Shown here: one piece after another, positions 2,987 to 45,852 of the stretch
Position numbering within the stretch: position 1 is the first letter of the stretch
Layout: each line of letters opens with the position of its first letter
NCBI RefSeq assembly: GCF_038025025.1
Contig: NW_027117344.1
Location: 682,001 to 746,000, forward strand
Length of the DNA stretch: 64,000 bases
From: Phyllosticta citribraziliensis
Lineage: Eukaryota
Direction: 5' to 3'
The notes under the pieces: generated by a model
The model's input: the letters and a program-made list of their open reading frames with translations, nothing else
What the model was told of the DNA's origin: nothing
Databases searched by the model: none
Position numbers and translations under genes: made by a program

Positions 2987-4900
2987 TCACGGACAGAACA
3001 ACACCATATTCCTCGCCGCCTTACTAACACTCCTGTCGCGATTCCTGCCCCTGAGCCAATCCCCACTAATAGTGCGCCGCCGCCTCCTCTTCTCCTCTCC
3101 ATCGCCTTCTCCCTCACTCTTATCGCCCTCTCCTCTCCTCTCCACCGTCAGGTGCACATTTGCATTTGCACTCGCACTGCCCGCGCGCTCATTGCCACCG
3201 CCACTACCACTTGCGCCCGTCTCCCCATTCTCGGCCTGGGCGAGTACCAAGCTTGTCGTGCTCGCACTCGCGCCAGCGCTGTTGCCGCCGCCCGCGTAGT
3301 ACCGTCCGGCGCCGGCGACTAGGTTGACCGAGCTGCGCGAGGCCGAGCGGGAGCGCGCGCGCGCTTGCGCCCACTCGCGCGCGGCCACCTGCTCGGACAG
3401 GCGGTGCGCGTCGAACGTGCTGAGGCGCTTGTGGTGTTTGGCAGTCCTGGCGTTGTGAATGCCGCCATTGTTGCTCTGGCGGTTGTTGTTGTTGGTCGAA
3501 GAAGCGGAAGAGGAAGACGACGACGAAGAGGCGCCAGAGCCGTGGCTGCCGTTGCTGGACGTGCTGTCGCGGCCGGTGCTGTGGCTGCGGCTGTGACGGT
3601 TATGGACAACGGCGGTGGCGGTGGCGGGCGCGGGCGCGATTTGCTGCAGAGGGTTGAGGTGCAGTTGGATGTGGAGGGGGTTGGAGAGGGTGCGGCGGCG
3701 CGTGGAGCCCGCCCGGACGGTGCTGCCTGGCATCGACTGTCTCTTGGACGCCGTGCTGCTGCTGTCGTTGCTGGAGCCGAGGTAGGCGGCCATGGGAACG
3801 GGTAGCGCCAGTGTTGAGCGATTGCCGCGGTTGCCAGGGCGCAGCGATGGCGGGAGGTGTGATGTGTTTGACGCCATCGAAGCGCTGGTCGTCGTGGGAG
3901 GAGTCGGGGGCGCGGCGGCCGTCGTGTTGACGGAGCACGACGACGACGAAGGAGAAGAGTAGAAGGACGAGGGCGTGATGGGCGGGGAAGGAAGCGTTGA
4001 TGGCACCAACTTCGGAGACTCTTCCTTCGCCTCCTTGTTCTCAGGCTCTTTGTGATGTTGCGGCTCGTCGTGGCTCTCGACGACAGGCGTGTGAGGCTGG
4101 ATGCAGATGGAAGGGGGCAGCGGAGGTGGTAGCGACGAAGTCATAATCTTCTGCGATGTCGACGCCGAGCGCGTGCTTGGTCGCGAGTCCGTAGTGCTGG
4201 AGTTGGGGCCTGACGAGGTGGCCGTGCACGTCGTGATGCTGTGGAGGCTACCGTGCTTGCTGACCAGGGGGCTAGGGGGACTGGGTTGGCGTTCGATTTG
4301 GAGCGGTACGAGGCCGGTCGAGCTGAGGCAGTGGTTCGAGGTAAAGCCGGGGTCGTTGTAGGTGATATAGGCGATGACATTTTCCCCTGCGGATTGGGCG
4401 TGCCGGTGTGGGTCAGGTGCGACAGTCGTCCTGACGTTGCCATCATCCACGTCTCTAAGAAGAGGAGTGAGAGTCTGAGTGCTTCCCTGCCCGACGTTGG
4501 AGGCTCTGTTCATTTTGAGCTGTGATTCCGTCGCCCTGTTGTTGTTCAAAAGCTTGGATTGTTCGTTTTGAGCGGCAATCGCCAAATCTGCTGGTGCTTG
4601 GGTCGTACGTTCCCAGGCGAATGATGGAAGGTTTGCAGTCGACATGGCCTTGTTGCCAGTATCGTGGTTTTGGTACGGGTTGTTCTTTTCAAAGTCGTTG
4701 CTCTTTGTTCTGCGGAGGCCTCTCTTCTTGAGCATGAATCCGAAGACGGACATGAGGAGAATGAGTCCGAGGGTGCCGAATATAGCCGCAGTGACGATGG
4801 TGATAATGTGGGTACTGGAGGCCGAAGAGCTTGCGGAAGATGTCGTGGATGATGTGGCGCTGCTTGTTTGTGATGAAGACGTTGTGGTGTCCTGGGCCAT
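2987..4900 (-). CDS. Hypothetical Ser/Thr-rich single-pass membrane protein with long low-complexity tail
   Basis: Long uninterrupted ORF; first ATG at 4900 (MAQDTTTSSS), S/T-rich N-terminus, hydrophobic segment IITIVTAAIFGTLGLILLMSVFGFML followed by basic KKRGLRR, then S/P-rich region; true start or upstream exon uncertain. Confidence 0.6.
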   Translation of the reverse strand: MAQDTTTSSSQTSSATSSTTSSASSSASSTHIITIVTAAIFGTLGLILLMSVFGFMLKKRGLRRTKSNDFEKNNPYQNHDTGNKAMSTANLPSFAWERTTQAPADLAIAAQNEQSKLLNNNRATESQLKMNRASNVGQGSTQTLTPLLRDVDDGNVRTTVAPDPHRHAQSAGENVIAYITYNDPGFTSNHCLSSTGLVPLQIERQPSPPSPLVSKHGSLHSITTCTATSSGPNSSTTDSRPSTRSASTSQKIMTSSLPPPLPPSICIQPHTPVVESHDEPQHHKEPENKEAKEESPKLVPSTLPSPPITPSSFYSSPSSSSCSVNTTAAAPPTPPTTTSASMASNTSHLPPSLRPGNRGNRSTLALPVPMAAYLGSSNDSSSTASKRQSMPGSTVRAGSTRRRTLSNPLHIQLHLNPLQQIAPAPATATAVVHNRHSRSHSTGRDSTSSNGSHGSGASSSSSSSSASSTNNNNRQSNNGGIHNARTAKHHKRLSTFDAHRLSEQVAAREWAQARARSRSASRSSVNLVAGAGRYYAGGGNSAGASASTTSLVLAQAENGETGASGSGGGNERAGSASANANVHLTVERRGEGDKSEGEGDGEEKRRRRRTISGDWLRGRNRDRSVSKAARNMVLFCP

Positions 4901-7254
4901 AACCGAAATAAGAACACTTCCGGGGTAATGGGGGACCTTATGAACTAACAAATGAGATGAGTAGTACAGGGGTAGCCTTAAAGCCTCTGCACTGGTCCTT
5001 GCGGTTGGTGGAGTAGTCTAGAGAATAGATGACATGGCAAAAGACGTGATGTCTGGCGCAGCTTTGTACGCGTGCAGTCTTTCTGTTCGGAGTAAAAATA
5101 GCCGCTTTTGTCGAAAAGGACCCCAACTTTACATGGCGATCTTTGACAACGCGGAGGTAGACGTAGAGCCGCAGTGGACGTTTGGTGTGGCGTGCGTCCA
5201 GCGGCCCCCACCGAAAGGAACACCCCTCACAATCCTTTGTGGTCGTTGCTTTGAGGTGATTGGACCGTGGTGACGAAAGAGGAAAATGCGTAAACAGCTT
5301 TCAGAAAACAAGATGTGGTCCGGGTGAGAAACAAGAAGCGCCATGGCGACATCCACCCCCAACACAGGGTGCCTGATTCGGCTTCAGCCTTGCCATATTG
5401 CGCTTGGGTTACCTTGATGCATAATCCATTTCCAGTCAATTCTTGAGTTGGTCATAATGCCTGGAGCTGGCATAAGGACTGCTTGTCATCTTCTCCTGAC
5501 GCCCAGTTCTAATGACTACATCTTGTGCGCGTTGAATGCTGCGCCCTGGGAAAAGAGTGCGTGGAAGTCAGGCGGTGGATCGATTTGCGGACAGCAGAGC
5601 ACGCGCAGGGAGGGCGACGTGGTAGGAGCTTTTGGGTGGAGTAGCAGGGGCTGTGCATCATCACTGCCTGTTTTGGAACGCGTGTGCTCGGTCCCGGATC
5701 CGACAGGGAGAAGAAGACGTCAAGCACAAGCCAAACCAACAGGCAGCGTCTCCGTCCCAAGAATATTGGCGAGCATCATTACCACCCCGTTACTGAATTG
5801 GCGCGTGCCGAATCCTTCCGCCCTGCAGCCAAAAGGCGTCACGAAATGTGGTCGACAAAAGACGTGAGGAGGCTGTGGAAGGAGGCTTTCTTCCTCCAAC
5901 CACGGGCCTCATCATCTAGGTGACGAGTTTCGATAAACCTGAAACACATTTGAGCTCAAGCTCAAGTCGGACGTCTTGGCAGGCGGCCGCAGTGTCGTCG
6001 ACAAGATCCCAGAAAACATCTCCGCAGTCAGACCGCGATGATCTCCGGAAATTTGGCGCCGACCGACTCGAAATTTGCATCCTTTTCCCACCGCCATTCC
6101 CAACTCGGTATTTTTAGGTAGATGTGGTCCAAGTCTGGTGATCGTCTTCCAGAAGGTGGTGTTGGTCGTGGGGGTCGAATTCATCCCCTTGTTGTTCTCC
6201 TCCTCTTTCAGCAAACCCAAACTCCCTTGGTCCGAATGCGCGATGTTCAGATGGGCTTGCGCGTAATGTGCTAGCGCAAGACTACCGCCGAGATGTCAGA
6301 GTTCTCTTGGTTGCCTTTGCTCGTATGTACACATCACCCGTTGACGCGGCGCGTCCACAGCTCAGTCCACTTCATCGTCGGCAACCATGCGCGGTGCGCG
6401 ACATTCAGCGCTGCGCCTTCATCTCTGCCAGCATCCCGCCATTTCCAAAATTTTCCATATTTCTCTTCAAACAAGCCTTTCGATTCAGCAGACAATAATC
6501 TCGTCCGAGCAGAGAAAGACGCGCCACAGTGGCGCTGCAGCTGACTGCCTACGCTTTTACGGTGCTGACCAACCACGTGGGAGGAGCGAGAGAGTACATG
6601 GCGCAGCCAGAGAGCATGTTGCCAGAAGCCGCTGGCGGGTTCGCCTCTGCGCTCTGTTCCTTTGCGTTTAAGACGCTGTAGCTGGAAAACCTGCGTTGCG
6701 TCAGCCTTGCAGCAGCCCTATCCAAAGCACGTACATAGGTCATCGTCCACTCAAACGCATTTTTGTTGCTCATCTTTTTCCTCAGCCCTGAATTTATTTG
6801 CAAAGAAAACGCCCGGCACCAGCCCTTCGAGGTGAGACTCGAGCACAGTCACAGTTGCCGCTATTGTTCACGTCGTGTTTAGCAGGACGCTGACCATCCG
6901 GATGAAGCCGACTTTGAGCAGGCCGGCGGTGCCTGACATGACTCACCGCCTGAGCCACTCTGTCGTATACATCGTGTCAGCATCTGTAAGGGCGTAGGCG
7001 CGGTGGTGGTGTCGATGCAAGAGCGGAGCAGAGAGAACGGGAGTTGACAGGCAGCGTTTGGCACCCCTCGGGCCCGCGGGAACAGGCAGGGGGGTTAGCG
7101 GGCCGGTCCAAGGAAGTAAGTCCTGGCCGGCTGTCGCCCGCGGCTCCGGGCCAACAATCGGCCGGCCGAAAAACGACTATATATTCCTCGCCAACCCTCC
7201 CCCCAACCTATCCTTTTTCTTTCTCTATCAGTAGGTTATGATTAACATCATATA

Positions 7255-7788
7255 CCATCGAGGCTCCGCTACGGCGGCTTGCTGAGGGTCAGTCGTTCAA
7301 ATGGCTTTTCTTCCGTTCCCGGCCTCGTTGAGAAAAGGCGTCCGTCTTTCCTACCAGCCGCGCAGCTATTTCCGATAGCTCGTGGCTGTGGGATGGCCGC
7401 TACATGCCATTTTGACCGCTTTGTGGCATTTTTTTATTTTTCTTCGTTTGGGGGCCCCTTGCTCCCACTCCGACAGTCTGGCGCTCGCTTCTCCGCTCAG
7501 GCGGTGCTGTAAGCACTCATCAACGTTTGTGAGGGTTCTGTGCTTCTCGTGCTGTTGCGGCGGCATTGTCGCAGAGTTTTCGCGGTGCCAAAATTGTTGC
7601 GTCAGCCTCAACGCCTCGACATAGTTTTGGTCTTGGATGTGACTGCAATCTACCCATGTTTATGACACGTCTCGCTGTTCTTGACCGCATGTCGCTGTGT
7701 TGACGAGCCCGGCGCAGTGCGTGGCAAAGAAGTGACTCCCTAAATCTACCCGCAGCGGTCAACGACAACCCTCTGGATCCAGACATGG
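7255..7788 (+). ncRNA. Candidate large structured ncRNA, H/ACA-like 3' end
   Basis: TATATA at ~7178; long-range stem 7258-7264/7613-7619; C(UACG)G tetraloop hairpin 7266-7277; several hairpins with G-U pairs on + strand; 3' hairpin with internal loop ending 15 nt before ACA (7783-7785); no convincing ORF. Confidence 0.45.
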
Positions 7789-8066
7789 CGCAAGGAGCAT
7801 CATTTTTGTTTCTCTCTCCGCACCAACTACGTTTTTGAGACTCGTCGGCCTTGCTTAGCGCATCGGCTACGGTTGTGCTTGAAGCAGTTTTGGCAGCTCT
7901 ACATGCTGCTGAGCCGTTCAGTCACTCATCACTTGAGGCCACAAAAATTTCGAGCGCTGATTGCTGTTTCATTTGCTATCTGTGATGATACTGCGCAACC
8001 AATTGAATGGCTACGAAGATGGCCGAGAGCCCAAATGAGCACAACAGACCCATGCCGAAAATGACC

Positions 8067-8877
8067 TTAGTAAAGGCGGCGGGGAGGAGACATGGTAGCC
8101 TTGATGGTCAGGCTACCAACGTTCTGCCAGCCCTTCTTCAACAGGGAGACGAGGTAGTTGATGGCAAGCATGATGTTACCAATCAGCTCGTCCTCGGTCA
8201 TGCCAACGTTGCCGACGGCGACACCCATGCAGAGAACCTTCTTGAGCTGGAACTTGACGGTGGACTTGACCTCGGTGATCTTGTCGCCCAAGTTCTCGGA
8301 GTGAGAGACGGGGGTAGGGAACTTGCCGGCTGTTTCGCTCGTTAGCAAAGCCTCTCACAATGCTCACGCTACCGAGGTTCTTACCCTTGGAAAGACCAGG
8401 ACCCAAGAGACGGGGGATCTGCTTGATCAGAGTGTCGGAGGCGATGAAAGCATCGTACTTCTTCGCGAGCTTCTTGATCAGCTTCTTGTTCTTGTTGAGC
8501 TTCTTCAAGTCCCTTTCGAATTGTCAGAACATCTTCTCCAAAATTGTATCCAGGATCCTTACTCGGCGCTCATGGCGTCAACACCGCCGTGCTTGGCACG
8601 GTCAATGTCGTGCTGGTCACCGAGAATGCAGATGGCCATGCCCGGGCGGGGGACCTTGGGCAGCTTGACGGTGCCGGAGAAACGCTTGTCACGCTGGGGG
8701 TCATAGTTCTTGAGGCCGATCTGGAGCTCGACGGTCTCGAGGAAGTTGCGCTTCTTCTCCTGTTGGGCTGTCAGCGGTGCACGGCAGAGTCTGGCGACGA
8801 TTTTGACGCACCTCGTTGGAGTAAGCGAGCAGCTCCTTGACGTTGCTGCGCACGCCGGCGACGGTGATCTTGGACAT
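8067..8877 (-). CDS. RPL1: 60S ribosomal protein uL1 (L1/L10a)
   Basis: [17 protein letters not shown]...[33 protein letters not shown]...[25 protein letters not shown]; exons 8877-8812, 8759-8563, 8512-8385, 8329-8067. Confidence 0.98.
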
Positions 8878-18957: not shown

Positions 18958-19039
18958 GGTCGCTTAGCTCAGTTGGTTAGAGCGTGGTGCTAATATCAAG
19001 TTAACGCCAAGGTCGCGAGTTCGACCCTCGTAGTGACCA
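18958..19039 (+). tRNA. tRNA-Ile(AAT) with 8-nt intron
   Basis: Cloverleaf GGTCGCT/AGTGACC acceptor, D arm GCTC/GAGC, anticodon stem TGGTG/CGCCA with CT-AAT-A, intron TCAAGTTA, T-loop TTCGACC; TTTT just downstream. Confidence 0.96.
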
Positions 19040-45770: not shown

Positions 45771-45852
45771 TGGTCACTACGAGGGTCGAACTCGCGACCT
45801 TGGCGTTAACTTTATATTAGCACCACGCTCTAACCAACTGAGCTAAGCGACC
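45771..45852 (-). tRNA. tRNA-Ile(AAT) with 8-nt intron (second copy)
   Basis: Reverse complement identical to 18958-19039 except one intron base (TAAAGTTA vs TCAAGTTA); AT-rich TATA-like sequence upstream at ~45886-45903. Confidence 0.96.

Follow-up and report, generated by a model that had tools for sequence, protein, structure and literature searches.

A compact box H/ACA small nucleolar RNA gene downstream of RPL1 in Phyllosticta citribraziliensis is a probable counterpart of yeast snR37

A box H/ACA small nucleolar RNA (snoRNA) gene was located downstream of the 3' end of RPL1 in a stretch of 64,000 nucleotides (nt) of Phyllosticta citribraziliensis DNA (contig NW_027117344.1, positions 682,001 to 746,000; the window), which is fungal in character, with spliceosomal introns and a G+C content of 55%. 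A first-pass annotation had flagged the interval 7255-7788 as an unannotated, lineage-specific plus-strand RNA of ~530 nt with H/ACA-like architecture. Its class and strand are borne out by fold, conservation and guide; its size and its supposed restriction to one lineage are not. The plus strand from 7211 or 7227 to 7407 very probably encodes an H/ACA snoRNA of canonical size (~180-200 nt, the first third of the interval only), the counterpart of Saccharomyces cerevisiae snR37, human SNORA10 (ACA10) and Neurospora crassa ACA15, with guide, pocket-less 3' hairpin and leader matching that family. It is filed as an orthologue because target, guiding hairpin, pocket-less 3' hairpin, pocket branch and leader match, i.e. 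on function and architecture only. The RNA is a new member of a known and experimentally studied snoRNA family, not a new 530-nt RNA; for annotation, one ordinary snoRNA gene is gained and one supposed novel 530-nt RNA is removed.

The hairpin-hinge-hairpin-tail layout of box H/ACA snoRNAs is found in the minimum free energy (MFE) and centroid folds of the RNA, and was also predicted independently for M1 and M2, two variants of its homologues in metagenomes. As modelled, this is the textbook layout at textbook size (Table 1). We propose that a TATA-type promoter of its own would drive transcription of the gene by RNA polymerase II, as for most N. crassa H/ACA genes. Structure prediction and covariation show a short leader hairpin followed by the 5' hairpin, the hinge with AGAAAA, the 3' hairpin and the ACA tail. 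CGUUCCC and GCU of the 5' pocket are complementary to GGGAACG and AGC flanking one uridine in helix 90 of large subunit (LSU) ribosomal RNA (rRNA); this uridine would be converted to pseudouridine by bound Cbf5. The only irregularity predicted in the 3' hairpin of the window, M1 and M2 is a one-sided bulge of 4-5 nt; like the pocket-less 3' hairpin of yeast snR37, the hairpin is probably a protein-binding or structural module only.

The guide was evaluated with the rule that a substrate reads, from 5' to 3', the complement of the 3' pocket strand, then U-N, then that of the 5' pocket strand. Eukaryotic LSU sequence was taken from an IMG/VR contig (L123) found via a universal LSU motif from the E. 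coli 23S locus; its first 361 nt, from the 3' region of such an LSU rRNA, match Rfam LSU_rRNA_eukarya with 126.8 bits, from model position 2922 to the last, 3401. The best of the 116 U sites in L123 is position 32, in TAGGGAACG-TG-AGCTGGGT, with 7 + 3 Watson-Crick pairs and no G-U; the seven are formed by CGUUCCC (7314-7320) with L123 positions 25-31. The runner-up reaches 6 + 1 pairs, three of them G-U, and only one of 28,547 background U sites (both strands of the window) attains 7 + 3 even with G-U allowed. E. coli 23S rRNA, scanned with the same pocket strands, gave no equivalent match. Complementarity is thereby shown between the predicted 5' pocket and the surroundings of a helix-90 uridine of LSU rRNA, in the A-site region of the peptidyl transferase centre. 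The target U lies 23 nt 3' of the A-loop U (E. coli U2552, L115 position 2811), and the equivalent E. coli position is 2575. As to L123 itself, the contig is filed as viral. Past ...GGAACCGTTGAT, from position 130 on, it is A+T-rich and no longer recognisable as rRNA, yet the Rfam match extends over 1-361, which suggests an insertion (an intron or insertion element) or a mis-binned ribosomal DNA fragment.

The extent of the RNA was determined from fold stability and conservation. Folded as a whole, the plus strand of the 534-nt interval is only somewhat more stable than its shuffles (z = -1.74, 6 of 100 shuffles as stable; minus strand, z = 0.04). All of the excess lies in the 5' part, with z = -2.89 for 7257-7406 (3 of 200 shuffles as stable; minus strand, z = 0.09) and z = -3.39 for plus-strand 7227-7407, which none of 200 shuffles equalled. 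The remainder, 7408-7788, shows no excess stability (z = -0.27, 40 of 100 shuffles as stable), and neither does the 3' hairpin that had been proposed at 7630-7788 (z = -0.12, 81 of 200).

RNA contigs from three sequencing runs, representing three species, cover the locus together with spliced RPL1; the three runs, listed as 'RNA?', were accepted as RNA on account of contigs spliced at the RPL1 introns. The contig of organism A is identical to the window over 6900-8289. That of organism B aligns across 6900-8329 at ~91%. Its substitutions, counted from table rows up to 7501, number 27 in 6960-7210, 0 in 7211-7384, 1 in 7385-7407 and 12 in 7408-7501. The 181 nt of 7227-7407 contain a single substitution, and the 345 nt of flanks contain 39 (Fisher p = 8.6e-7). 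The contig of organism E aligns at 7257-7417 only, with six differences and two one-letter insertions, both in apical loops (after 7297 and after 7368), and its flanks do not align.

In metagenome contigs, a search for the 3' pocket strand followed by the hinge, with seven free letters in between, returned 114 loci. By blastn, 11 of these are homologues, 73-75% identical to the window, with alignments confined to 7211-7405; a single repeated bacterial element makes up most of the other 103. When a covariance model was built on the window plus four distinct homologues, it recovered all 11 loci, none of the 103, and in the window one site alone (7216-7420). Neither window flank, 6800-7230 or 7400-8000, resembles the homologue loci (all E >= 2), and no significant RPL1 match indicating synteny was found in the 330-nt flanks of those loci (one 21-residue match, E = 0.27). 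Position 7211 marks the start both of the substitution-free block of organism B and of the blastn homology, while similarity among the metagenome variants drops sharply ~18 nt past the ACA. Stability, the limits of organisms B and E, and metagenome homology give the same boundaries. The gene takes up no more than the first third of what was flagged, and the most plausible reading of 7408-7788 is 3' flank or spacer outside the RNA.

Several elements that lie outside the search pattern are conserved. The 5' guide strand GGCUUGCU (GGCUUGCUGAGGGU at 7278-7283) is invariant in the window and all homologues though the pattern did not fix it, and GCUACAU, which includes the ACA box, is invariant in all five aligned sequences. 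The leader motif AUCAGUAGGU is identical in the window and three of the four metagenome variants, the fourth having AUCAUUGGGU.

Covariation was assessed on a model-fitted alignment (A2) of 12 sequences, six of them distinct and from about three lineages. Model-based realignment was used because a plain MAFFT alignment, from which RNAalifold recovered the 5' hairpin, mis-registered the 3' hairpin and the leader. Standard pairs occupy 94.9% of the cells in the proposed helices; shifting the 3' partners by 1-3 columns lowers this to 40-55%. Both partners have changed in nine pairs, compared with 1-4 after the shift, and none of 500 column shuffles reaches nine. Two of these double changes (C-G to G-C and G-C to A-U) fall in the 5' lower stem, which is 100% paired in the six distinct rows; one (G-C to A-U) is in the mini-hairpin, whose loop is UACG, UUCG or CUCG in homologues; one is in the 5' upper stem, and five are in the upper and apical 3' hairpin, whose helices are 98-100% paired. 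The leader hairpin is out of register in the model alignment (61.9% of cells paired), but on separate folding the window, M1 and M2 all have a stem at this place, made of differing sequences (GGUUAUGAU, GGUAAAG and UGGGUUGAC, respectively). The tetraloop hairpin at 7266-7277 and the hairpin at 7355-7388, both picked out by the first-pass annotation, are real parts of the RNA with compensatory changes, and the G-U pairs are, as it had noted, consistent with a plus-strand RNA.

These observations leave a negligible probability that the locus contains no RNA gene and that the conserved block is a DNA-level regulatory element or the 25-codon open reading frame (ORF) at 7301-7378. The block does sit between two genes and contains a short ATG-initiated frame. 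However, its stability is plus-strand-specific, its helices carry compensatory changes, and the relatives have a 1-nt insertion within the short frame, after 7368. Organism B is unchanged even where substitutions in the frame would be synonymous, and the block also has H and ACA boxes and an rRNA guide.

A single H/ACA-like RNA of ~530 nt spanning 7255-7788, closed by 7258-7264/7613-7619 and ending after the ACA at 7783, is scarcely credible. The motifs cited for it are all present in the sequence, namely CAGTCACA at 6846-6853, TCGAGGC (7258-7264) and GCCTCGA (7613-7619), the C(UACG)G hairpin (7266-7277), the hairpin at 7355-7388, TGGGGGC/GCTCCCA, TTGGAT (7633-7638), ATCCAG (7777-7782) and ACA (7783-7785); taken together, they are mostly no more than chance would supply. 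The stem 7676-7688/7755-7767 is found in the MFE fold of 7630-7788, the RNA contigs of organisms A and B traverse the whole interval, and yeast snR37 is itself unusually long, at 386 nt. Against this, neither 7408-7788 nor 7630-7788 folds better than shuffled sequence, the latter is not conserved, organism B is ~13% diverged over 7408-7501, and neither organism E nor any of the 11 metagenome homologues has anything in common with the window past about 7430. The TGGGGGC/GCTCCCA hairpin has three uncompensated changes in organism B (7452, 7453 and 7466). The closing helix is missing from both the MFE and the centroid structure of the 534-nt fold, its 5' arm having a nearer, covarying partner at 7321-7327, so that the 5' domain is closed by 7259-7265/7321-7327 instead. 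In place of the hinge read as ACATAG and the ACA at 7783 there are already a canonical H box, AGAAAA at 7331-7336, and a functional ACA at 7402-7404. Pairing by eye accounts for the artefacts of the earlier model: its 530-nt architecture, its atypical hinge and its distal ACA.

A number of points count against the assignment to the snR37 family, and some bear on the guide. The eukaryotic LSU sequence scanned comes from another organism and is 361 nt long, and the 3' side of the guide duplex has only 3 base pairs before a U-U mismatch. Equating the target with yeast U2944 relies on the A-loop numbering Um2921/Gm2922, which we take to be that of yeast. L123 has A and C at what are presumably the places of yeast Am2946 and Cm2948, which agrees with U2944. 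A U nine letters downstream of the target in L123 falls at the place of U2953, U2944 and U2953 being 9 nt apart in the yeast snR37 report (10.64898/2026.03.20.713187). The distance from guide to H box is 16 nt (7315-7330) or 17 nt (7314-7330) depending on counting convention; the rule quoted in the N. crassa survey (PMC2780460) puts 14-16 nt between the target U and the H or ACA box downstream of it.

Other points bear on homology and structure. Rfam searches of the 64 kb, of 1.4 kb and of 186 nt, at the gathering threshold and at E <= 10, gave no family for the locus, so far as its description as unannotated goes in line with the first-pass annotation; the output consisted of two transfer RNAs (tRNAs) elsewhere and, at E <= 10, only the spurious HOTAIR_3 and SpR20. 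The likeness to yeast snR37 and N. crassa ACA15 is drawn from their descriptions and concerns function and architecture. At the 18 positions set by the search pattern (3' guide, hinge and H box), conservation is not evidence. RNA support consists of assembled contigs, which are silent on a discrete RNA, its ends, strand and level. The model-fitted alignment leans towards the structure it was given, and with six distinct rows from about three lineages each double change amounts to a single window-versus-metagenome event. Finally, G7385A in relatives breaks the pair C7358-G7385, which becomes a C-A mismatch in the metagenome variants; A at 7385 is also present in organisms B and E.

Some of these points also bear on whether the RNA is an H/ACA snoRNA with another substrate uridine, in rRNA or in a small nuclear RNA (snRNA), the helix-90 match being coincidental. 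With the scan limited to 361 nt of eukaryotic LSU and E. coli 23S, a guide-box distance at the edge of the rule, and conserved 3'-hairpin strands (UCUUUCCUACCAGCCG and CUGUGGG) that could in principle form a second guide, this reading has some footing, yet we consider it highly improbable: a perfect 7 + 3 match occurs at 1 in 28,547 background sites, and it falls on the very uridine assigned to snR37, ACA10 and ACA15, likewise guides through the H-box hairpin. Moreover, UCUUUCCUACCAGCCG and CUGUGGG pair with each other, as is reported of the yeast 3' hairpin, likewise pocket-less.

With respect to biogenesis, an independent gene is favoured, by analogy, by a TATA-like element at equal distance in homologues and by the N. 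crassa precedent. The TATATA reported upstream is present (7179-7184), and the metagenome homologues have a TACAAAA element at a similar distance, -47, giving a range of -47 to -49 from the leader motif for window and homologues. The HomolD-like CAGTCACA, by contrast, does not qualify as a promoter element: it occurs three times in the window against 2.54 expected, with at least three copies in 49 of 100 shuffles, and the copy in question is ~360 nt (364) from the putative start at about 7210.

It is also conceivable, if unlikely, that the same snoRNA is excised from within an intron, its host being a short non-coding transcript, with AUCA/GUAGGU (7227-7236) as the junction of exon 1 and 5' splice site and a 3' splice site downstream, e.g. 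CAG at 7473-7475. GUAGGU fits the fungal GURNGU pattern and corresponds to GUAAAU in organism E. A pyrimidine tract with CAG recurs ~170 nt past the ACA in the metagenome homologues, and intron-encoded snoRNAs and non-coding host genes are reported for N. crassa (PMC2780460). However, the metagenome variant with AUCAUUGGGU has no good GU site, the covarying stem of the leader hairpin would sequester the splice site, and no consensus branch site was seen by eye near a YAG in 7408-7500. Furthermore, 16 of 20 N. crassa H/ACA genes are intergenic, ACA15 among them (PMC2780460). No splice joint around 7231-7475 was found in the RNA contigs; this counts neither way, and the same is true of gaps in the RNA-contig cover in runs X7 and X13. 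An independently transcribed gene is kept as the working model of Table 1.

Table 1 Coordinates of the snoRNA, its parts and its surroundings in the window
Feature	Position	Strand	Remarks
TATA-like box TATATAT	7179-7185	+	48 nt before the leader motif; putative promoter element
Pyrimidine-rich start region	7211-7226	+	putative transcription start or 5' end of the leader
Leader motif AUCAGUAGGU	7227-7236	+	conserved; resembles a 5' splice site (GUAGGU)
Leader hairpin	7234-7256	+	9 base pairs, loop UAAC; folds in window, M1 and M2
5' hairpin	7259-7327	+	lower stem 7259-7265/7321-7327; upper stem and loop 7284-7313
Mini-hairpin CCGC-UACG-GCGG	7266-7277	+	within the 5' pocket strand; small internal branch
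5' guide strand	7278-7283	+	GCU 7281-7283 pairs with rRNA AGC
3' guide strand CGUUCCC	7314-7320	+	pairs with GGGAACG just 5' of the target U
H box AGAAAA (ANANNA)	7331-7336	+	unpaired in the hinge; sole ANANNA in 7257-7407
3' hairpin	7337-7401	+	no pseudouridylation pocket; almost fully paired
ACA box	7402-7404	+	directly after the last pair, G7337-U7401
Predicted 3' tail	7405-7407	+	expected from the family rule of ACA + 3 nt
Remainder of flagged interval	7408-7788		z = -0.27; ~13% substitutions in organism B over 7408-7501; no organism E alignment past about 7430
RPL1 (uL1/L10a) coding sequence	8067-8877	-	convergent with the snoRNA gene; Pfam Ribosomal_L1

The flagged interval sits in a 3-kb stretch without long ORFs, flanked by a Ser/Thr-rich ORF (2987-5017, minus strand) and by the 3' end of RPL1 (uL1/L10a, minus strand). 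The last RPL1 exon matches Pfam Ribosomal_L1 with E = 1.4e-21, and the RPL1 introns at 8330-8384 and 8512-8561 are skipped in RNA contigs of four runs. RPL1 messenger RNA (mRNA) contigs of two runs, from different studies, stop at 7973, 94 nt past the stop codon, which is likely the RPL1 poly-A site, ~565 nt from the snoRNA ACA and on the opposite strand; therefore the RPL1 mRNA probably falls short of the flagged interval. The region of ~2.2 kb upstream of the snoRNA gene (5018-7178) contains no ORF longer than roughly 150 amino acids in any frame, and 6700-7178 has no Rfam match; a 7,043-nt RNA-run contig of organism A spans 5018-7178.

Other structured RNAs were considered for this locus and rejected. 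For telomerase RNA, which the first-pass annotation had already set aside, no template-like run exists in the 3-kb ORF-poor gap, the CCCTAA at 7738 being a lone copy, and no run of at least 8 telomere-repeat letters occurs in 4500-8500. RNase P/MRP, snR30 and spliceosomal snRNA gave no match to the Rfam covariance models. Elsewhere in the window, two tRNA genes (18958-19039, plus strand; 45771-45852, minus strand) are 99% identical over 84 nt and inverted, 26.7 kb apart; both have an 11-nt insert after the anticodon-loop position, and neither was called by ARAGORN with bacterial settings.

The metagenome loci themselves show further recurrent elements. In homologue loci L011, L023, L067, L082 and others, the 60-160 nt upstream of the leader motif contain GCAAACA twice, with GTACAAAATC at -47; these may be snoRNA promoter elements. 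Homologue loci L028, L071, L067, L082 and L026 diverge right after the snoRNA and share a second conserved block ~150-250 nt past the ACA (columns about 140-250 of alignment A3), made up of a pyrimidine tract and CAG followed by GTGATCTC..ATGTGTGTGAC, to which nothing in the window is similar; a splice acceptor and its exon, or a further small RNA, may account for the block. One repeated element with TCCGTTCCCGTTCCGTTTGAGAAAAGGAAAAGCGGAAGGGGGG recurs in most of the 103 loci that are not homologous (e.g. L001, L002 and L005), in many cases at a contig end and in some at both ends of the same contig (L040/L041, L054/L055); it resembles the terminal repeat of a mobile element of metagenomic bacteria.

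Yeast snR37, as portrayed in a recent report, is a 386-nt RNA that pseudouridylates U2944 in helix 90 via its 5' hairpin, with a long branch from the 5' pocket and a 3' hairpin without a pocket; its 5' leader matters for a second, scaffolding function with Upa1-Upa2 and Rbp95 (10.64898/2026.03.20.713187). A separate account gives the same target prediction and the same length (PMC8994135), and the main text of 'The fungal snoRNAome' does not mention snR37 (PMC5824354). The P. citribraziliensis RNA shares with snR37, so described, the guiding of the helix-90 uridine by the 5' (H-box) hairpin, a predicted 3' hairpin without a pocket, a branch in the 5' pocket and a 5' leader, branch and leader both being far smaller than those of yeast. 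In contrast, the yeast RNA has a 204-nt 5' hairpin with a long internal branch and a 3' hairpin with a three-helix junction binding Upa1-Upa2 and Rbp95, while the RNA reported here is ~180-200 nt long, its branch is a 12-nt tetraloop hairpin and its 3' hairpin a single 65-nt stem-loop.

It is tempting, though doubtful, to regard the compact RNA as a minimal, ancestral form of the 'bifunctional' snR37 small nucleolar ribonucleoprotein. This tentative reading is put forward because two fungal lineages ~27% apart keep three features that are dispensable for guiding, namely the pocket-less 3' hairpin with its invariant strands, the covarying leader hairpin behind an invariant AUCAGUAGGU, and the mini-branch in the 5' pocket. 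In yeast, snR37 was recently shown to combine A-site uridine pseudouridylation with scaffolding that depends on its extra helices (10.64898/2026.03.20.713187). A ~190-nt version that keeps the pocket-less 3' hairpin, leader hairpin and tiny branch marks conserved elements worth testing for a non-catalytic function. If the minimal-form reading were true, early pre-60S scaffolding (Upa1-Upa2/SPOUT1, Npa1 network) would predate the large yeast-specific expansions, and an RNA of ~190 nt would suffice for it.

Human SNORA10 is like the RNA reported here in being the predicted guide of 28S U4521, the human equivalent of yeast U2944, to which the snR37 report assigns it (10.64898/2026.03.20.713187); it differs as a vertebrate intronic snoRNA, and no Rfam family, any model of SNORA10 included, matched the window locus at E <= 10. 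N. crassa ACA15 was found by cDNA cloning and northern blot and is listed as homologous to snR37 and ACA10, guiding 26S pseudouridine 2902 with its H-box hairpin; most N. crassa H/ACA genes are described there as independently transcribed and longer than 160 nt (PMC2780460). Like the RNA of P. citribraziliensis, ACA15 comes from a filamentous ascomycete, is intergenic and guides with the H-box hairpin, its cDNA of 233 nt comparing with the ~180-200 nt predicted here.

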